From positions 110,738 through 174,737 of the forward strand of contig CAYTCJ010000002.1 of the NCBI GenBank assembly GCA_964436545.1: DNA of 64,000 nt, read 5' to 3'. This document shows, one piece after another, positions 4,935 through 20,596 of the stretch; positions within the stretch are counted from its first letter, which is position 1, and each line of letters begins with the position of its first letter. This DNA is from an uncultured Candidatus Saccharibacteria bacterium. GTDB taxonomy: Bacteria > Patescibacteriota > Doudnabacteria > UBA920. The notes beneath the pieces were generated by a model that was given only the letters and a program-made list of their open reading frames with translations, searched no databases and had not been told where the DNA came from. The position numbers and the translations under genes were made by a program.

Positions 4935-6269
4935 ATGCAACAAATTGACATTGCGGGCTTAAAACTTAATCAACTTAGCAAAACCGATTTGCTAACCAGG
5001 CTATTAAAAGAACTTCGGGCTAATCATTCCATTTGGCTTACCACCGTGTACTCGGAATTTTTATACGCTGGGCTCTGTGACCCAAAAATTATGGGGCTGT
5101 TAAACCAAGCTGATATTGCCATACCCGATGGCATAGCGATGTTTTGGGCAAAACGCTTTTTATACCTCCCGTTTACCGCCAAAACTTATTTGGGTAAAAT
5201 TTTTGAAGCTATTTGGCAAGCCGGCTATTCTTTATTGGCCATTATTTTTTACAAAAAATGGATCCTTTCCGCCTTGCCGGAAAAAATTGTGGGTGCAAAT
5301 TTAATTTGGGATTTAGCCAAACTGGCTAATGACAACCATTTATCCATTTACCTATTGGGTGGATTTGGCGACACTCCAGAACTTGTCAGAAAAAAACTTA
5401 CAACTTACAACTTAAAACTTAAAACTTATACCTCCAATAAACACCCAAGTGATACAACTATAATTAATGACATTAACCAAGCATCGCCCGACATTCTTCT
5501 GGTAGCTTATGGACCAATAAAACAAGAGCAGTGGATTTTAGAAAATCGTAATAAATTACCATCGGTTAAATTGGTGGTAGGGTTGGGTGGAACTTTTGAT
5601 TATCTGGCGGGCCGGCGCCTAAGTCCGCCTGAGTGGATAAGACGCGTAGGCCTAGAATGGCTTTTTCGGCTCATTACTCAACCCCACAGAATAACAAGAA
5701 TTTATAATGCCACGATAGGTTTAGTCAATTTATTAATTCATTATAAAGTTTTTACTTCACTACCCTTAAGACCCAATGTGGCAATTATTATTTTAAACAA
5801 TAAAAATCAAATCTTGCTTTGCGAACGAAATACCCATAACCACGAAGTGGATATTATCAGCACTCGCGAAGCCTTAACGCAAACCAACTATTGGCAATTA
5901 CCCCAAGGGGGGATTGATGCCCACGAAGACCTCGTTGGGGCTGCAAGACGGGAAGCCAGAGAAGAAACTTCACTTACTAATTTACAAGAGCTCTATATTT
6001 CTCCTCATACTCATACTTACTTTTGGAATAATGCTTTAAGAAATTTTAGGAAAAATAATCGCCACAAAAACCGCGGGCAAATTCAGAATCTGGTTTACTT
6101 GAAACATTTAGGACCAGACACGGAAGTTCAAATTGATAATCATGAATTTTCCAATTACCAATGGACGGACATAAATGCTTTAGACAAAACCATCCATCCG
6201 GAGCGAAAAACCCTTACAGCTATTGTGCTAAAAGATTTGAAAGAAATGCAAGAAAAAGGTATAATATAA
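4935..6269 (+). CDS. WecB/TagA/CpsF-family glycosyltransferase fused to a C-terminal NUDIX hydrolase domain
   Basis: The central region (VVGLGGTFDYLAGRRLSPPEWIRRVGLEWLFRL) matches the TagA/WecG fold family. The C-terminal part carries a NUDIX box (GGIDAHEDLVGAARREAREETSL). Confidence 0.7.
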   Translation: MQQIDIAGLKLNQLSKTDLLTRLLKELRANHSIWLTTVYSEFLYAGLCDPKIMGLLNQADIAIPDGIAMFWAKRFLYLPFTAKTYLGKIFEAIWQAGYSLLAIIFYKKWILSALPEKIVGANLIWDLAKLANDNHLSIYLLGGFGDTPELVRKKLTTYNLKLKTYTSNKHPSDTTIINDINQASPDILLVAYGPIKQEQWILENRNKLPSVKLVVGLGGTFDYLAGRRLSPPEWIRRVGLEWLFRLITQPHRITRIYNATIGLVNLLIHYKVFTSLPLRPNVAIIILNNKNQILLCERNTHNHEVDIISTREALTQTNYWQLPQGGIDAHEDLVGAARREAREETSLTNLQELYISPHTHTYFWNNALRNFRKNNRHKNRGQIQNLVYLKHLGPDTEVQIDNHEFSNYQWTDINALDKTIHPERKTLTAIVLKDLKEMQEKGII

Positions 6270-8270: not shown

Positions 8271-8312
8271 AAAAATTTTACCCGGGAAAACCGGGTAAAA
8301 TTTTTATTTTTT
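8271..8312 (+). terminator. Rho-independent terminator after gltX (AAAATTTTACCCGG-gaaaa-CCGGGTAAAATTTT + T-run)
   Basis: Perfect 14-bp stem, 5-nt loop and a T-tract directly after the gltX stop. Confidence 0.7.
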
Positions 8313-8340
8313 GCCAAATTCTGGTATAATTTATACCATA

Positions 8341-9642
8341 ATGTTAACTTTAATTGAAACAAAAAAATTTAAAATTATTTGGATTACTTTGGTGAGTTTT
8401 TTGTTATGGTTAAGCCCAATTTTAACCTTTTCCCAAACCCCAAGCTCAGTTAACGACTTAACTGCCAGCAAAACAGACAAGCAAAAAAAATTAACCGAGA
8501 TTAACCGGCAAATTCAAAATTTAAGCAAACAAATTTCCGATACCCGTGCAAAGACCAATTCCTTAAAAAATGAACTCTTTATTTTTGACCGCGAAATTGC
8601 TTCCACCGAACTGCAAATTCAAGCGAAACAAACCCAGATTGAAGATACCAATTTACAAATTGAAGAAATAGAAAAACTAATTGAACAACGAATCAACGAC
8701 ATTAATGAAAACAAAAAAATTCTGGGCAGTTTAATTTACGAACTTAACCAATTTGATGATGTATACGGCTTACAAACTACCTTAGGGGCCGGCAACCTTT
8801 CGGATTTTTTGGACCAAATTCAGTATAATAATTCTTTACAAGAAAAAATTTACCAGTTACAGGAAAAAATCAAGGAAATTAAAGCCAAACTGGAAAAGCA
8901 ACAAAACGAACTAAAAATTCAACTGGCAAACTTGGAAGAACTTAAACACCAATTGGAAATTACCAAACAATCCATTACCGAACAAAGAAACCAAAGACAA
9001 ATTTTACTTAATCAAACCCGAGGCCTCGAAAGTAATTTTCAAAAACTACTCGCACAAAGTAAAAAAGAAGAATCGGATTTAGAAAAAGAAATTGACGAGT
9101 TAGATTCCGCCATTAGAGCTAAATTGGGCAACAGGACAATAAAAGTAAGTAAGGGTATTTTAGCTTGGCCCATGGACGGCATTCTTACCCAAAAATACGG
9201 CAATACCGGCTTTACCGCGTTAGGGTATGATTTTCATAACGGTATTGATATTGCTGCTCCGGCCGGACAACCCATTTACGCAGTCTACGATGGCGAAGTC
9301 TTGTATACCGATAATAGCGATGCCTCATATGGCAATTGGGTGGCTATAAAGCATAATTTAAGCATAAAAAACTCGGAAACTAAAATTATTACCCTGTATG
9401 CCCATATGCGCTCGTTTAAAGTTAAAGTGGGTGCCAAAGTTAAACAGGGAGACATAATTGGCTACGAAGGCAACACCGGCAATACCACAAAAAAACTTTA
9501 TGGGCCGGAAAGAGGCTATCATATTCATTTTGGCATTTACGATGCCGAAGGTTTTGGGGTGAAAGATGGTAAATACCAAAATATTTATGGACCTTATAAA
9601 ATTCCTTTTGGCTATACCTATAACCCTTTAGATTTTTTATAA
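8341..9642 (+). CDS. Secreted M23 (LytM) metallopeptidase with a long N-terminal coiled coil (EnvC-like architecture)
   Basis: Signal peptide. Heptad-rich Q/E/K region. C-terminal M23 motifs HNGIDIAAPAGQPIYA, GNWVAIKH, LYAHM. The ORF track starts at TTG 8311. ATG 8341 follows TATAAT at 8325-8330. Confidence 0.8.
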   Translation: MLTLIETKKFKIIWITLVSFLLWLSPILTFSQTPSSVNDLTASKTDKQKKLTEINRQIQNLSKQISDTRAKTNSLKNELFIFDREIASTELQIQAKQTQIEDTNLQIEEIEKLIEQRINDINENKKILGSLIYELNQFDDVYGLQTTLGAGNLSDFLDQIQYNNSLQEKIYQLQEKIKEIKAKLEKQQNELKIQLANLEELKHQLEITKQSITEQRNQRQILLNQTRGLESNFQKLLAQSKKEESDLEKEIDELDSAIRAKLGNRTIKVSKGILAWPMDGILTQKYGNTGFTALGYDFHNGIDIAAPAGQPIYAVYDGEVLYTDNSDASYGNWVAIKHNLSIKNSETKIITLYAHMRSFKVKVGAKVKQGDIIGYEGNTGNTTKKLYGPERGYHIHFGIYDAEGFGVKDGKYQNIYGPYKIPFGYTYNPLDFL

Positions 9643-9645
9643 TCT

Positions 9646-10560
9646 ATGACTCAAACCACATTTAAATTTATCTGCTTGGCGTTGTTATTTTTTTACAGTT
9701 TTACTCCGCCGGTCCTCGCCCAAACCCATGTGGGTAGCACGTATAGTGGCCCCGAAGCTCAAATTAAACAGTTTCTTTGCACCCCTTCGGATGCCAGCAC
9801 TAATGGCGGTAAAGCGAATAATGACTTATACAACTGTATTAATCGCATCTACCGCTTTGCCTTAGTCACAGCTGCTTTTTTTGCTGTCTTTATGATTGTC
9901 TTAGGTGGCTGGGTATATATGTCAGCCGAAGGCAACGAAGAATCGGTAACTAAAGCTAAAGATATTTTAGTTACCAGCATTGCTTCCATTGTAATTCTTT
10001 CCAGTGGCTATGTCCTCTTAAAATTTATCAATCCCGACTTAATTCAATTCCAACCCATTCAACCGCCCAGCGTGGTGGGGGTGGAGAGAGGGTATAGTTT
10101 TGCCAACTTAGTAAGCGGGGGACTAGGTAGCGGAGGTGGCAGTGGGGGTGGAAGTAGTGGTGGCAGGAGCGTTCAAAATTATATTTTAGCTGGTTATAAT
10201 ATTGGTCCATATGCCACCAGTCCTAATCATGAAATTGTCGTTTCTAATATTTATCGTAACTTAGGAAGTTACAATTTTTCCTCTGCCACCATAATCGATC
10301 AATACATGAAAAAAATCAGACCCAATACTCCACTTACTGGTCAAATGATTATAAATTCGGCAAGTAAATACTCCATAGATGCCAAATTATTAGTCGCTTT
10401 AATGCAAGCCGATAGCGCCTTAGGCACAGAGGGTTTAGGTAAAAATACCAATAACCCCGGCAATGTTGGAAATACTGATGACGGTAGTATTAGACGTTTT
10501 CCTGATTGGCAAAGTGGAGTTAACGCGGTGGCCGAATGGCTATCTAGACACCGAGCATAG
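9646..10560 (+). CDS. Secreted two-TM module protein with a Gly/Ser linker and a C-terminal GH73-like (glucosaminidase/lysozyme-like) domain
   Basis: Signal peptide, then a 129-aa module with two hydrophobic helices, then a GGLGSGGGSGGGSSGG linker. The C-terminus (LVALMQADSALGTEGLGKNTNNPGNVGN) resembles GH73/FlgJ-type muramidases. The assignment is by motif only. Confidence 0.55.
   Translation: MTQTTFKFICLALLFFYSFTPPVLAQTHVGSTYSGPEAQIKQFLCTPSDASTNGGKANNDLYNCINRIYRFALVTAAFFAVFMIVLGGWVYMSAEGNEESVTKAKDILVTSIASIVILSSGYVLLKFINPDLIQFQPIQPPSVVGVERGYSFANLVSGGLGSGGGSGGGSSGGRSVQNYILAGYNIGPYATSPNHEIVVSNIYRNLGSYNFSSATIIDQYMKKIRPNTPLTGQMIINSASKYSIDAKLLVALMQADSALGTEGLGKNTNNPGNVGNTDDGSIRRFPDWQSGVNAVAEWLSRHRA
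9710..10097 (+). repeat. Copy 1 of a 388-bp direct repeat, 100% identical to 11068-11455
   Basis: Nucleotide-for-nucleotide identity from GGTCCTCGCCCAAACCC through GGGTATAGTTTTG. It encodes an identical 129-aa module in two adjacent genes. Confidence 0.9.
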
Positions 10561-10599
10561 TTAAATTTTAGTTTGACTCTTCAATTATTTTAACCGCCT

Positions 10600-11010
10600 A
10601 TGAAAAAAATTATTGTGATTATAGTTATCTTACTGGTCTGCTTCCTGGTGGCCTTAGGGATTTTAGTAATTCTTAATCAAAAATCCACATCGCCCAATTC
10701 TAACAAACAAACTCAAAAAAAATCGTCTTATAAAATTTCTTTATACGTCGATAAGGACGGTTTTAAAGATGTCTTTCTAAATGACTCTAAAGTTCCATTA
10801 CCGGCAAAAGATATTGAGCAATATATTTCATTTTTTATCAATGGTCCGGGAGATTTAATTTGGGTAAATTGTAACGAAAATTACAAACTCAAAAGCTATT
10901 ATAGTAATACTGGAGAGAATATTATCTTTGATCCCAGCATTGGGTTAGGTTTAGAACTAGAAAAATATATTTATAAGCACATAAGCCTGAGTTGTGAAAA
11001 ATATGAATAA
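10600..11010 (+). CDS. Small membrane-anchored protein (136 aa) between the two hydrolase genes
   Basis: N-terminal transmembrane helix, Cys-containing C-terminus. Its stop overlaps the next gene's start. Confidence 0.45.
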   Translation: MKKIIVIIVILLVCFLVALGILVILNQKSTSPNSNKQTQKKSSYKISLYVDKDGFKDVFLNDSKVPLPAKDIEQYISFFINGPGDLIWVNCNENYKLKSYYSNTGENIIFDPSIGLGLELEKYIYKHISLSCEKYE

Positions 11011-12121
11011 AAATATTTGGATTTTAGCTCTGTCAATTTTACTCCTATTTAACTTTAACGTTTCATTGGTCCTCGCCCAAACCCATGTGGGTAGCACGTA
11101 TAGTGGCCCCGAAGCTCAAATTAAACAGTTTCTTTGCACCCCTTCGGATGCCAGCACTAATGGCGGTAAAGCGAATAATGACTTATACAACTGTATTAAT
11201 CGCATCTACCGCTTTGCCTTAGTCACAGCTGCTTTTTTTGCTGTCTTTATGATTGTCTTAGGTGGCTGGGTATATATGTCAGCCGAAGGCAACGAAGAAT
11301 CGGTAACTAAAGCTAAAGATATTTTAGTTACCAGCATTGCTTCCATTGTAATTCTTTCCAGTGGCTATGTCCTCTTAAAATTTATCAATCCCGACTTAAT
11401 TCAATTCCAACCCATTCAACCGCCCAGCGTGGTGGGGGTGGAGAGAGGGTATAGTTTTGATAAAATTGATCCAAAAATCTTTGGTGAATTTAAAAATTTA
11501 GATAAAGCAAATTCCACCCCTCAAAGTTTTGCAAAAACTGAAATTACCAATTGTAAATCAACCACAGGTAGAATTAATGGCTTTTATCAATTTTCACAGT
11601 GTAATGGAACTTGGGTAAATGATTTATATCCATCGAAAACTGAAACCTGTAAAGAATCTAATGGCAGTGCCAGCACTATTGGCACATCAGCTTGTGGCCC
11701 AAGTTCTATGGCGACCGTTTTAAAATATTACGAAACCAAGCAACAATTAAAACCAGAAGCTAGGGTAAAAAATATGGAAATTAATCCTCAAACCATTGCT
11801 GGTCTGACTGTCGAGCTTAACGAAAGAACTTGTGGACTTGGTACCAACGCTGGCATGTTCTTAAAAGTTGCTAAGTTATATGGTTTGAATGCAAGTACAA
11901 TTTCAGGGTGGACCAATATTACCAAAGAATTAAATAACGGTCATCCAGTGATTGCAGCTATGGGACCCGGCAAATTCACAAGCGGGGGGCACTTTATAGT
12001 ACTACACAAAATTGAGAATAATATTATTTATATAGCTGATTCAGGTCCAAGAGGGATAGATAAATCAGATATCGCTACTGTTCAAAAAGAATTAAAATAC
12101 GCAATATTAATTTCACCTTAG
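10994..12121 (+). CDS. Secreted two-TM module protein with a C-terminal papain-like (C39-like/CHAP-like) cysteine peptidase domain
   Basis: N-terminal module identical to the previous hydrolase. The C-terminus has a Cys nucleophile context (SACGPSSMATVLKYY) and a downstream GGHFIVLH...D, consistent with a C39-like peptidase. Confidence 0.55.
   Translation: MKNMNKNIWILALSILLLFNFNVSLVLAQTHVGSTYSGPEAQIKQFLCTPSDASTNGGKANNDLYNCINRIYRFALVTAAFFAVFMIVLGGWVYMSAEGNEESVTKAKDILVTSIASIVILSSGYVLLKFINPDLIQFQPIQPPSVVGVERGYSFDKIDPKIFGEFKNLDKANSTPQSFAKTEITNCKSTTGRINGFYQFSQCNGTWVNDLYPSKTETCKESNGSASTIGTSACGPSSMATVLKYYETKQQLKPEARVKNMEINPQTIAGLTVELNERTCGLGTNAGMFLKVAKLYGLNASTISGWTNITKELNNGHPVIAAMGPGKFTSGGHFIVLHKIENNIIYIADSGPRGIDKSDIATVQKELKYAILISP
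11068..11455 (+). repeat. Copy 2 of the 388-bp perfect direct repeat
   Basis: Identical to 9710-10097. Confidence 0.9.
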
Positions 12122-12180
12122 TCGCATAAGATACATTATGCGACGCTATGTGTCTTAAATTATCACTGCTTCCTAATAAA

Positions 12181-12211
12181 TATCCATGTGTATATAAACA
12201 CATGGATATTT
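12181..12211. repeat. Perfect 14-bp-arm palindrome AAATATCCATGTGT-ata-ACACATGGATATTT. A second palindrome, GTCGCATAA-gataca-TTATGCGAC, lies at 12122-12146
   Basis: Read directly in the convergent intergenic region. No T-run follows, so it may be an operator or a hairpin rather than an intrinsic terminator. Confidence 0.6.
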
Positions 12212-12419
12212 ATTTACCTATGAATTCTTCTCCCCTTTTTTTACTAACACCGATTTTAAAATTTGTATAAATGTTTATTTTTTCTTTCTACAAATATAAC
12301 TCCCCCCAACATAGTGTAAAAATTTAAACAAAAGTTAACGTTCGCATTAAATTAAAAGTATATTCTAAAAGTATATTCTGTTTTTACCTTATTAATTAAG
12401 CATAAAAAAACTGGCAGTA

Positions 12420-12765
12420 AAATTAAAAACTGCCAGTGGACTAAAAGAGGTTGGAAAGCAAAAAGCTCTCAGGGCCGGAGGAGACTGGCCCGTTTACAAT
12501 CCTCTTTTAGCCACTGGCAGTTACCAGGCACCAGCCTGGCAAAAAAAATCGATAGCGCAAACTTGGCTGTTTTAGCCAAACACCCACCCCTGAGTGCAAG
12601 ACTTCTATTCAAATAGCCTTTTGAGCTAATTGAAGATTCTTGGGTTTGCGCTAAGGCACTTAACTTTAGGAGCAAAGCGCTCAACTGAAAAGCTAAGCTA
12701 AACTAGACGCAAGGGAGAAGAAGCCTTGCTATTTAGGAAATCCCGCCCTTTGGGATTTTTATTTG
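12420..12765. ncRNA. GC-rich structured non-coding region of about 340 bp (candidate ncRNA, strand uncertain)
   Basis: A 20-bp imperfect long stem (12430-12450 / 12500-12520) is followed on the minus strand by a T-run. A plus-strand terminator lies at 12738-12761. There are many internal hairpins and only a spurious 71-aa antisense ORF. GC content is far above the flanks. Confidence 0.35.
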
Positions 12766-12795
12766 ATGTAATCATGTCAGATTTGGTAAAAAAAG

Positions 12796-13182
12796 TCAAC
12801 GACTGGATTTAGTAAACCCGGCTTGCTTAGCCTCGGTTTCTGTATTAAAACACCTTTCCGGTTTTGTATTTTTATAAAAAGCACCGGTAGGTAGATGGTA
12901 CGTCATTTTGCCGGTAGAGCTAATATTGCCCTTAATTTTGCAGGTTTCTAAGGTATTAGGGGTAGTACTACCCTCCCCTACCTCAGGCGGTGAATTTTGC
13001 TTAAAGGTGGAATTTTTAGTATAATTAATGAGTAATTCATGCCGTTTTTTTTCACTCAGGGTTTCGCTTTTATACTTGCCTAACCCAAACCCCGCCAAAA
13101 ACGTTAAAATAAAACATAAAGCAATTTGTAATTCCTTAGGGTGATCCTTAAACCAATTTTTTATTTCTGTATAATTTACCAT
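12796..13182 (-). CDS. Membrane-anchored protein with a small conserved Cys-containing C-terminal domain (CKIKGN...YHLPTGAFY...CFNTETEAKQAGF)
   Basis: N-terminal transmembrane helix. The C-terminal about 45 aa resemble a small 'C-x-IKGN...YH-P-G..Y...CF.tE.eA...GF' module seen in secreted bacterial proteins. Confidence 0.45.
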   Translation of the reverse strand: MVNYTEIKNWFKDHPKELQIALCFILTFLAGFGLGKYKSETLSEKKRHELLINYTKNSTFKQNSPPEVGEGSTTPNTLETCKIKGNISSTGKMTYHLPTGAFYKNTKPERCFNTETEAKQAGFTKSSR

Positions 13183-18903: not shown

Positions 18904-19815
18904 TTAAATAAGTAAATATTTTCTAATAGCTAAAAAGGTGGAAACCACCGATAAAACCAAAGCAATAATAAACAATAAACCTACCAATAGCCAAAAATTA
19001 ATTAAACCCGACTCATTCGCACTTACAGAAATAAAATTCATTAAACCCGACAAGGGCTTAGAATAAATGGGGGCTAATAAACCCGCGGTAAACAGCGTGG
19101 CAGTTAAACTATATAATCCGCTTTCCACAATAAACGGGGTGCGAATATACCAATTGGTAGCTCCTACCAAACGCATAATTTCAACTTCTTCTTTACGGTT
19201 AAAAATCGTCAGACGGATGGTATTAAACATAACCAAAATCGCAATGGAAGAAAAAACCAAAACCAAACCCAAGCCAAAACTCACCACAAATTGCAAAATT
19301 TTGGTTAACCGTTCAATAATTTCTTTATTGTCGTTATAATTAATTTTGTCTATAAAACCCGAAAAACTTCCGGCTTTAATTTTTTCCGCCAAAATGGGAA
19401 AATCGCCCAAATTATTGGCTTTTATTCGCAAAGTAGCTAACAACGGATTTTCGTCCACCTCGCTTAGAGCCGATAAAATTTGCGTATTATTGGCGTGCCT
19501 AGCCTTAAATGTCTCCAAAGCGGTTTGAGCCGAAACATAAGTTACTTCTTTAACCAAAACCTCTTCCTCAATACTTTTTTTTATATCTAAAATTCTCTCC
19601 TCAGCCAATCCCTTTTTTAAATAAACACTAATATCCACCCTTTGCTTAATGGCAGAAACACTCATACTGGCTAAACTAAAAATTAGAATCAATAAAGCGA
19701 AAGTCAGTAAGGTTACCGTCATCACCAAGCTCGCCGAAACCGATAAAATCCAATTCCGAGTAAAATTACTTACTCCACTTTTTAGGATTCTGATTAAAGA
19801 AATTCTGTTTAGCAT
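18904..19815 (-). CDS. ftsX: Cell-division ABC transporter permease FtsX
   Basis: FtsX topology (TM1, large periplasmic loop, three C-terminal TMs). Immediately downstream of ftsE. Confidence 0.8.
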   Translation of the reverse strand: MLNRISLIRILKSGVSNFTRNWILSVSASLVMTVTLLTFALLILIFSLASMSVSAIKQRVDISVYLKKGLAEERILDIKKSIEEEVLVKEVTYVSAQTALETFKARHANNTQILSALSEVDENPLLATLRIKANNLGDFPILAEKIKAGSFSGFIDKINYNDNKEIIERLTKILQFVVSFGLGLVLVFSSIAILVMFNTIRLTIFNRKEEVEIMRLVGATNWYIRTPFIVESGLYSLTATLFTAGLLAPIYSKPLSGLMNFISVSANESGLINFWLLVGLLFIIALVLSVVSTFLAIRKYLLI

Positions 19816-19918: not shown

Positions 19919-20596
19919 TTACAATTTATACTTTCCCTTTTCTTGCTCCATGGTGATTTTACCATTTTCTAAAGTAATTACCCGTCTCTGAATTTTATTA
20001 ACCAAATCCGCAGCATGAGTGGCTAATAACACGGTAGTGCCTAACCGATTGATTTTTAAAAGTAATTCCAAAATTTCATTCGCATTGACTTCATCTAAAT
20101 TTCCCGTAGGTTCATCGGCCAACAATAACACCGGTCTATGAGCCAAAGCGCGGGCAATGGCCACGCGTTGTTTTTCTCCACCCGACATTTCATTGGGAAA
20201 ATTATTGCGCTTATGCACCAAACCCACCAAATCTAAAATTTTAGGCACATCTTGCTGAATTTTTTCATTCTCATAGCCACACACTTCCATAGCAAAGGCA
20301 ATGTTTTCAAAAGCCGTTCTCCTAGGTAGGAGTTTAATGTCTTGAAACACAAACCCGATTTTCCTGCGTAAAAAAGGAATATCACTTTCTTCCACGGTCT
20401 TTAAATCGATTCCGTCAATTAATATTTTACCTTCATCGGCTTTTTCTTCGCCAATAATTAACTTTAAAAAAGTGGATTTACCCGCCCCCGAAAGCCCAAC
20501 CATGGAAATAAATTCACCTTGGTTAATTTCCATATTTAACTTATCTAAAGCTTTGGTGGGACCGTAGTATTTAGTGACATTAATAAATTTAATCAT
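19919..20596 (-). CDS. ftsE: Cell-division ABC transporter ATPase FtsE
   Basis: Walker A GLSGAGKST, ABC signature LSGGEKQRVAIARAL, Walker B LLLADEPTGNLD. 225 aa. Confidence 0.85.
   Translation of the reverse strand: MIKFINVTKYYGPTKALDKLNMEINQGEFISMVGLSGAGKSTFLKLIIGEEKADEGKILIDGIDLKTVEESDIPFLRRKIGFVFQDIKLLPRRTAFENIAFAMEVCGYENEKIQQDVPKILDLVGLVHKRNNFPNEMSGGEKQRVAIARALAHRPVLLLADEPTGNLDEVNANEILELLLKINRLGTTVLLATHAADLVNKIQRRVITLENGKITMEQEKGKYKL

Follow-up and report, generated by a model that had tools for sequence, protein, structure and literature searches.

Predicted cell-wall hydrolases on a common VirB2-like pilin handle in an apparent operon of Doudnabacteria

The 64,000-nucleotide stretch of Doudnabacteria DNA analysed here (the window) contains four adjacent genes, designated g1 to g4, two of which are securely predicted to encode exported, membrane-tethered enzymes. 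In both proteins, a handle belonging to the VirB2 family of type IV secretion system (T4SS) pilins precedes a catalytic domain, which has a GH73 fold in g2 and is C39-like in g4. Comparison with the genes of relatives makes it equally secure that the handle is a constant part, prone to recombination, to which exchangeable wall-hydrolase domains (warheads) are attached, and that the handles are homogenised within genomes. The proposal that the handle addresses the enzymes to the T4SS or pilus machinery, which would make them wall openers of the VirB1 type, is given an even chance.

The common handle of g2 and g4

The genes g2 and g4 contain a perfect direct repeat of 392 nt (130 codons; Table 1), which translates into 130 identical residues, Val23 to Phe152 in g2 and Val26 to Phe155 in g4. 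The flanks of the two copies are unrelated (38 and 47 mismatches in 60 positions), and a perfect repeat with unrelated flanks cannot be produced by chance. The edges of the repeat are sharp. On the 5' side, the identity starts three codons before the predicted signal-peptidase site (VLA-QT) and, on the 3' side, it stops at ERGYSF, just ahead of the linkers. The signal peptides (residues 1 to 25 in g2) differ in sequence between the two proteins, and the common part is the mature handle alone. In the numbering of g2, the handle begins with a segment containing C45 and C64, a pair capable of forming a disulfide, and continues with two hydrophobic helices (residues 71-92 and 107-128) joined by the short charged loop SAEGNEESVTKAKD; the second helix is followed by the conserved segment NPDLIQFQPIQPPS. 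Both ends of the handle are predicted to lie outside the cell, with the linker and the enzyme facing the wall. A cleavable signal peptide, two membrane helices, a short loop and outer ends are also the topology of the T4SS_pilin family PF18895. The AlphaFold2 (AF2) models of g2 and g4 start with a signal helix and a short helix. A long helical hairpin (residues 54-93 and 98-127 or 98-128, with a predicted local distance difference test score, pLDDT, of about 80-90) comes next and is connected by a disordered linker to a confident catalytic domain. Neither a third copy of the handle nor another pilin-like open reading frame (ORF) was found in the window.

An earlier note, made from the letters of this DNA, had described a block of three hydrolases sharing a module, identical over 129 residues in two of the genes and comprising a signal peptide, a Cys-containing segment and two hydrophobic helices. 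The identity of the module in two enzyme genes holds, over 130 residues, as do the Cys pair, the helices and the flexible linker (Gly/Ser-rich in g2) leading to different catalytic domains. The signal peptide has to be removed from the identical part, and the third hydrolase, the M23 protein g1, is without the module. The four co-directional genes of that note, headed by an EnvC-like M23 peptidase gene, were recovered as ORFs in the same places.

Relationship of the handle with VirB2-like pilins

An exhaustive search with a profile of the handle retrieved 49,127 cluster representatives with E values of up to 1e-3, of which 107 have E values of up to 1e-30. Among the best 150 matches, nearly all are proteins of 280-400 residues with the module in N-terminal position. 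The Pfam scan covered the 131 closest relatives, of which 121 match PF18895 at E < 1e-3; ten also match the TrbC/VirB2 family PF04956. At the orthologous loci of relatives (L numbers below; P numbers are related proteins), the cut-off of PF18895 is exceeded by the proteins of L003 (34.7 bits), L007 (31.1), L002 (27.9), L011 (27.8) and L004 (26.8), and P0051 reaches 30.6 bits. The match in g2 spans residues 61-120. The stand-alone relative P0005 (146 residues) ends in ...INPDLVDLSITIQPLY, exactly where the linkers of g2 and g4 start; the handle is thus a complete pilin domain and not a fragment. The resemblance to TrbC/VirB2 pilins, speculative in the earlier note, is now backed by homology to both families. 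A sequence search of the PDB with the module profile returned noise only.

Residues 63-128 of g2 also match weakly (15.6 bits for a cut-off of 40) the Mbov_0395 pilin-like conjugal transfer family of NCBIfam, which comes from integrative and conjugative elements (ICEs) of Mycoplasma, a hint of similar hairpin "pilins" in other monoderm conjugation systems. Other relatives, such as P0129, P0162 and P0165, contain from three to eight tandem T4SS_pilin hairpins per polypeptide (for example eight matched stretches in 820 residues); they are probably polytopic proteins built from repeated pilin units.

Diversity and exchange of the C-terminal enzymes

The C-termini of 203 proteins with a single N-terminal handle were clustered with a coverage filter, which kept residual handle or linker sequence from joining unrelated domains. 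The largest cluster is GH73-like with the motif NPGNV (30 members). Three clusters correspond to LAS/M15-like zinc peptidases with the motifs HxxGxAxD and HxH (28, 25 and 23 members), one to SLT (21) and one to C39-like domains (13); two clusters of 17 and 14 members are without family, and M15_4, CHAP and singletons complete the set with small numbers. Further Pfam partners of the handle are Amidase_2, VanX, SLT_3 and a GDSL esterase, together with one triple fusion of pilin, M23 and C39. Among the 203 relatives, at least eight C-terminal families are carried by the handle, and all the assignable ones are peptidoglycan hydrolases. The earlier note had asked which C-termini the module bears in relatives, and had considered that it might be an ordinary anchor found on unrelated proteins; the GH73-like, SLT, LAS/M15-like, M15_4, C39-like and CHAP partners, with the unassigned clusters, give the answer and are not the distribution of such an anchor.

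The type of warhead varies at the orthologous locus. The combination of GH73 and C39 is found in the window, L001 and L009, that of LAS and GH73 in L004 and L005, the reverse order GH73 and LAS in L029, and that of LAS and SLT in L002. A single gene is present in L003 (CHAP) and in L013, L014, L017 and L019 (SLT). The close relative L025, with nucleotide identities of 83% to the window and 90% to L001, has a single gene in which the handle is fused to M15_4. Homology between L025 and the window is interrupted after position 10102, where the repeat ends, and starts again at 12107, which precedes the stop codon of g4 by 15 nt. L025 shows a clean replacement of the cassette at the junction of handle and linker. 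With these breakpoints and at least eight clusters, the genes combine the constant N-terminus, the variable C-terminal enzyme and the recombination at the junction that characterize polymorphic effector-immunity systems.

Two variants of the locus stand apart. L022 encodes a triple fusion of pilin, M23 and C39_2 (623 residues; positions 8335-10206). In L026 (positions 10001-11530), the handle is followed within its protein by nothing but a Gln/Asn/Gly-rich tail, and then by a separate ORF of 229 residues, possibly a split warhead.

Concerted evolution of the handles

Over the 392 nt of the handle, the two copies differ at no position in the window and at four positions in L001, an independent JGI contig with the same arrangement. 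Between the window and L001, 47-48 of the 392 positions differ, and only seven of the differences change an amino acid. These between-genome substitutions are mostly synonymous and common to both paralogues, a pattern that gene conversion is able to create and selection is not. The nucleotide identity between paralogous handles is 96% in L002, 90% in L004, 98.4% in L005 and 97.7% in L010, and the N-terminal 205 residues or so of the L029 paralogues are identical. In seven of the nine genomes with two copies, the nearest relative of a handle is the paralogue of its own genome, whatever the warhead. The copies of the more distant lineages L021, L022 and L024 have diverged to 33-58%. Within a genome, the handles are kept near-identical by gene conversion, in concerted evolution.

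Predicted enzymes and the small partner of the GH73 type

In its AF2 model, the catalytic domain of g2 has the lysozyme-like fold of GH73, which implies that the putative enzyme cuts glycan. With the Glucosaminidase family PF01832, g2 scores 26.1-28.6 bits for a cut-off of 30.2, and only positions 2-81 of the 123 in the profile are aligned. When the catalytic domains of g2 and g4 were searched against the sequences of the PDB, the matches were weak or non-significant. With the model of g2, Foldseek found the type VI secretion system (T6SS) effector Tge2 (4kt3_A), with a probability of 0.94 but a non-significant E value of 0.56; we take Tge2 to be a GH73-like effector. An acid position of g2 was aligned by eye with what is presumably the catalytic Glu of GH73 enzymes (motif LES). 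The residue is an Asp in g2 (MQADS, D256) and in most relatives, and a Glu in a few, such as P0090. The motif YATxPxHE (residues 189-196 of g2) is located N-terminal, not C-terminal, of the helix bearing this acid residue (MQADS, residues 253-257), and NPGNVGN (residues 270-276) comes after the helix. When the YATxPxHE segment was moved in silico to the C-terminus, the score rose from 28.6 to 32.7 bits in g2 (profile coverage 2-118), from 28.5 to 35.5 bits in P0010 and from 32.4 to 40.5 bits in P0084. In four of the five proteins, the Pfam alignment, which had ended at profile position 81, reached positions 118-122 after the permutation. Shuffled controls scored 31.0 and 31.5 bits, with coverage only to profile positions 81 and 87. 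These values suggest that the GH73-like domain of g2 is circularly permuted. GH73-like domains without the handle occur in P0069, P0074, P0076, P0082, P0084 and P0090, with a short helical N-terminus and long Pro/Thr/Ser-rich tails; they may belong to phage or surface proteins.

The C-terminal domain of g4 matches Peptidase_C39_2 (PF13529, 54.2 bits for a cut-off of 24) and Peptidase_C39 (PF03412, 29.4 bits for a cut-off of 22), and is modelled with a pLDDT of about 90 or more. The best structural match given by Foldseek is the ComA peptidase (2.5e-5); ComA, PCAT1 and 3erv, a secreted C39-like protein of B. anthracis, lie within E values of 2.5e-5 to 1e-4, and further matches are the pseudomurein endoisopeptidase PeiR and papain-like contact-dependent inhibition (CDI) toxins. 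Profile, fold and the Cys/His/Asp set thus agree on a papain-like C39 peptidase. Genuine C39 domains are the N-terminal part of ABC exporters and cleave double-glycine leaders; no ABC transporter is adjacent to g4. Its domain is C-terminal, extracytoplasmic and carried by a pilin-like hairpin, and we therefore call it C39-like by fold. A wall substrate is inferred by association with the neighbouring enzymes only. The possibility that this domain processes g2 in its Gly-rich linker, in the manner of a double-glycine peptidase, was considered and found no support. The earlier note had allowed for C-termini belonging to non-hydrolase families; the score of g4 above the C39_2 cut-off, its conserved triad and structure matches, and the intact M23 motifs of g1 speak for hydrolases.

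The g3 protein has a transmembrane (TM) helix at residues 4-25 and an outside domain of about 100 residues, with conserved C91, C132, Y44, Y75 and S102, and matches no Pfam family. Throughout the family, a TM helix stands at the N-terminus, and two Cys, as well as Tyr and Ser positions, are invariant. A homologue of 128-162 residues is found directly 3' of the GH73-type fusion at seven loci (the window, L001, L004, L005, L009, L010 and L029), whether the GH73 gene is the first or the second of the pair. No g3-like ORF follows the C39, LAS or SLT fusions in the compared loci. The link with the GH73 type alone points to g3 as a dedicated partner of this warhead.

In the g1 protein, a signal peptide and a long coiled coil precede an M23 (LytM) metallopeptidase domain (90.3 bits for a Peptidase_M23 cut-off of 28.7, with weak matches to coiled-coil families). 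NCBIfam gives partial matches to DipM, MepM, NlpD and EnvC. The coiled coil followed by M23, the HxxxD and HxH ligands and the presence of FtsX in the window are the features of an EnvC-like protein. With spacings of 3 nt between g1 and g2 and 39 nt between g2 and g3, and an overlap of g3 with g4, the four genes look like one operon. The true start of g4 is likely the ATG. A scan for promoters and terminators gave no signal above shuffled expectation.

Table 1. Features of the g1-g4 locus and of its surroundings (positions in the window; residue numbers refer to the protein named)
Feature	Position	Strand	Description
g1	8341-9642	+	ATG start, TTG at 8311 upstream; predicted secreted EnvC-like M23 protein, first gene of the apparent operon
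g1 active-site motifs	9235-9249; 9520-9528		HNGID (HxxxD); HIH (HxH); intact
g2	9646-10560	+	Signal peptide, VirB2-like pilin handle, Gly/Ser linker, predicted GH73-fold glycosidase
Repeat copy 1	9711-10102	+	Handle inside g2; 100% identical to copy 2
g2 TM1	9856-9921		First helix of the handle
g2 TM2	9964-10029		Second helix of the handle
g2 conserved segment	10030-10071		Follows TM2
g2 linker	10117-10164		Gly/Ser
g2 catalytic domain	10165-10557	+	Residues 174-304; GH73-fold; AF2 pLDDT 95-98
g3	10600-11010	+	Small membrane-anchored protein, one TM helix
g4	10994 (GTG) or 11003 (ATG) to 12121	+	Signal peptide, identical handle, linker, predicted C39-like cysteine peptidase
Repeat copy 2	11068-11459	+	Handle inside g4; 100% identical to copy 1
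g4 catalytic residues	11693-11695; 11990-11992; 12038-12040		Cys234; His333; Asp349; conserved in subfamily alignment
WecG-NUDIX gene	4935-6269	+	One ORF, WecG/TagA-type glycosyltransferase and NUDIX hydrolase domains
Stretch downstream of g4	12122-12795		675 nt
Sunset-domain gene	12796-13182	-	Small protein, N-terminal TM helix
FtsX	18904-19815		
Putative FtsE	19919-20596		Assigned by position next to FtsX only

Genomic setting and possible function

We propose that the common handle would dock the enzymes to one partner, the T4SS or pilus assembly machinery in charge of VirB2-like pilins in Patescibacteria, so that cuts in glycan and peptide would be confined to the sites where the apparatus crosses a wall. 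The genes would then do the job of hydrolases such as VirB1, TraG, PrgK and CwlT, divided into separate genes with a pilin as address. The wall cut could be that of the cell itself, that of a host, or both, and g3 may regulate or protect the GH73 enzyme as its cognate partner.

A link with a T4SS is given by P0046, homologous to g2 over 82% of its length, in both the handle and the catalytic domain of GH73 type (37% identity, E 1.6e-37). Its locus L028 contains, in order, a PrgI/VirB3-like gene, an intein-containing VirB4-like ATPase gene, two unknown genes, the fusion and YidC-RnpA-L34-DnaA, which places this g2 homologue three genes downstream of the ATPase, inside a T4SS cluster. The intein, at 4670-8464 of L028 together with the ATPase that it interrupts, bears a LAGLIDADG homing endonuclease domain. 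In the Uhrbacteria locus L024, five tandem fusions lie between radA, recG and comF, a neighbourhood reported as the setting of ABY1 T4SS loci (PMC12102498). VirB2-like PF18895 pilins are widespread in Patescibacteria, often in arrays of 2-11 genes, and together with the T4SS they are essential for the epibiotic growth of S. epibionticum (PMC12102498, PMC12857230, PMC10633639). The T4SS cluster of this organism encodes six PF18895 pilins, SEML1_0014-0019, according to the supplement of PMC10633639. The same supplement describes two unfused enzymes in the cluster, SEML1_0006 (GH73, lysozyme and Cys-peptidase) and the M15B-like SEML1_0007; they are of the same kinds as the handle-fused enzymes, and we count them as a link to the T4SS. 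At least one genome of the Doudnabacteria class is VirB4-positive (PMC12102498, Table S1). According to the literature on Patescibacteria T4SS, in about 40% of the VirB4-positive assemblies that contain pilin genes, none of these genes is located near virB4.

Several observations weigh against this proposal. The handles of g2 and g4 each score 26.2 bits with PF18895, 0.4 bit short of the cut-off of 26.6. Structure searches of the PDB with the hairpin returned only generic helical hairpins, for example the ATP synthase c subunit and designed bundles; such a fold cannot separate a pilin from an anchor, and the pilin assignment rests on sequence homology and context. Neither a VirB4-sized ORF nor a T4SS family was found in the 64 kb of the window. 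Synteny with the window extends over about 20 kb in 21 of the 23 reference-genome loci. Within about 10 kb, none of these 21 has VirB4 or other T4SS genes, and the only neighbours of the fusions there are the housekeeping genes GltX, WecG/NUDIX, Def, Fmt, L27, CTP synthase and FtsEX. Finally, the locus of the window is operonic with a division-type M23 gene, and FtsEX is part of the same block.

Most of these observations favour the best of the other explanations, according to which g2 and g4 are housekeeping autolysins. The hairpin would be a mere anchor, the enzymes would act with the EnvC-like M23 protein and with FtsEX, encoded 7-8 kb away, in the growth of the cell's own wall and the separation of daughter cells, and g3 would restrain the glycosidase. 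In all 21 syntenic loci, a coiled-coil M23 gene follows gltX and is directly followed by one or two handle-fusion genes, an arrangement also present on two further metagenome contigs. We regard this explanation as possible, at clearly less than an even chance. Homology links the handle to a pilin family and not to a generic anchor, and P0046 is encoded inside a T4SS cluster. Moreover, the enzyme type varies among close relatives at one locus, with a cassette replaced where the flanks are 83-90% identical, which is unusual for core division enzymes, and the maintenance of identical handles by conversion suggests a specific common partner.

An improbable alternative is that the proteins are polymorphic contact-dependent effectors. 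The handle would be polymerised into a T4SS pilus or onto its tip, the enzymes would digest the wall of a host or competitor, with warheads matched to the wall chemistry, and g3 would be an immunity protein. The breakpoints at the domain junction, the number of warhead families and the small cognate gene tied to the GH73 warhead agree with such a system, as do the structural neighbours (Tge2, in spite of its non-significant E value, and the CDI/papain-like toxins), the epibiotic lifestyle and the essential pilin arrays of cultured relatives. However, an immunity-like gene is lacking after the C39, LAS and SLT types, and a domain of 130-220 residues on every subunit is hard to fit into a pilus of the VirB2 type. 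Furthermore, no observed pilus of Patescibacterial VirB2-like pilins is reported in the literature searched, and the locus lies on the chromosome in a single copy and is operonic with the division-type M23 gene. The corresponding structure, a VirB2 pilus of Patescibacteria with all or some subunits bearing enzymes, would be an armed T4SS filament that drills host peptidoglycan; we hold it to be just as doubtful. If it existed, its exchangeable warheads (glycosidases, amidase, and LAS, M23, CHAP and C39 peptidases) would tune the host range to the wall chemotype, gene conversion would make all the handles in a cell fit a single filament, and g3 would give self-protection from the glycosidase. 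An assembly artefact (collapsed or chimeric), which would leave no module truly common to the two genes and for which perfect 392-nt identity in metagenome-type sequence is a suspect pattern, has a negligible probability and is ruled out by the independent L001 contig and by the near-identical, non-identical pairs of L002, L004, L005, L010 and L029.

The relatives compared are labelled Candidatus Doudnabacteria or "Patescibacteria group". Around the operon, the window encodes YceG, Fmt, two RNase T-like proteins, Def, the WecG-NUDIX fusion, GltX and an N6/N4 methyltransferase-like protein, as well as CTP synthase, L9, FtsX, RF, PBP2, ProRS, GatB and SecA; the L27 gene was assigned from its ORF sequence and from the annotation of relatives. 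No tRNAs, Rfam RNAs, or further pilin or T4SS genes were found when sought in the window. The WecG-NUDIX gene is conserved in 20 related loci. The stretch downstream of g4 has no convincing ORF and no Rfam match; in 19 relatives, its counterpart is a minus-strand gene for a class-V aminotransferase (cysteine desulfurase-like), a gene that neither the window nor L001 has. The next protein ends in a "sunset domain" (NCBIfam NF051437, 59 bits), and its position is conserved in 18 loci.

Significance of the pilin-hydrolase fusions

Pilin-hydrolase fusions were nowhere described in the literature searched; domain-architecture databases, which were outside this search, probably list them. How ultra-small epibionts pass the wall of their host, and what their essential pilin-bearing T4SS does, are open questions. 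A class of proteins that physically couples a T4SS pilin domain to peptidoglycan hydrolases offers a concrete and testable link between the two, in which the swappable warheads are candidate determinants of host range. The handles also provide a natural case of concerted evolution maintaining a common targeting domain, and the GH73 glycosidase g2, which may be circularly permuted, has a small protein as its dedicated partner. Should the enzymes be ordinary autolysins, the finding would still define the main wall-remodelling operon of the clade.

Comparison with known systems

Like the hydrolases controlled by FtsEX (EnvC, PcsB, CwlO and RipC), g1 is a secreted coiled coil followed by a hydrolase domain, with FtsX and the putative FtsE in the window. 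Contrary to E. coli EnvC, the M23 site of which is degenerate, g1 keeps the HxxxD and HxH motifs.

Polymorphic toxins and effector-immunity systems (CdiA-CT of CDI, Rhs, the LXG proteins of type VII secretion systems, and Tge2-Tgi2 of T6SS) likewise have a constant N-terminal delivery part, an exchangeable C-terminal enzyme and a breakpoint at the junction. The likeness extends to the small cognate gene after one type of warhead, whereas most warheads here are without an adjacent partner. The delivery part also differs, being a membrane hairpin homologous to a T4SS pilin, and toxicity to other cells is only hypothetical here. A functional module grafted C-terminally onto a pilin and displayed by the filament is reportedly found in the modular type IV pilins PilB and PilC of Streptococcus sanguinis. 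Those modules are adhesive, whereas the present fusions, which may or may not be displayed on a filament, join enzymes to the unrelated VirB2/T4SS type of pilin.

The VirB2-like pilins of Patescibacteria (PF18895; PMC12102498, and S. epibionticum SEML1_0014-0019, PMC10633639) belong to the same family and phylum, with a signal peptide and a two-helix hairpin, and their genes are likewise grouped in twos to fives, in tandem or with one non-pilin gene between them. The pilins described are small stand-alone proteins, whereas each handle here bears an enzyme of 130-220 residues. Their arrays are divergent (mean identity 25%, maximum 54%), in contrast with the copies reported here, which are 90-100% identical within a genome via gene conversion, and the locus of the window is not adjacent to virB4.

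The VirB1-type hydrolases of monoderm T4SS (TraG of pIP501, PrgK of pCF10, CwlT of ICEBs1 and SEML1_0006/0007) also combine an N-terminal membrane anchor with a glycosidase and a Cys- or metallo-peptidase. The LytM, SLT and CHAP domains of PrgK have their parallel in the M23, GH73 and C39-like domains of the operon. Here, however, the activities are divided between separate polypeptides and the anchor is a whole pilin domain instead of a single TM helix. The locus of the window is outside any T4SS cluster, whereas one homologue of g2 lies inside one, and the type of warhead is polymorphic between relatives.

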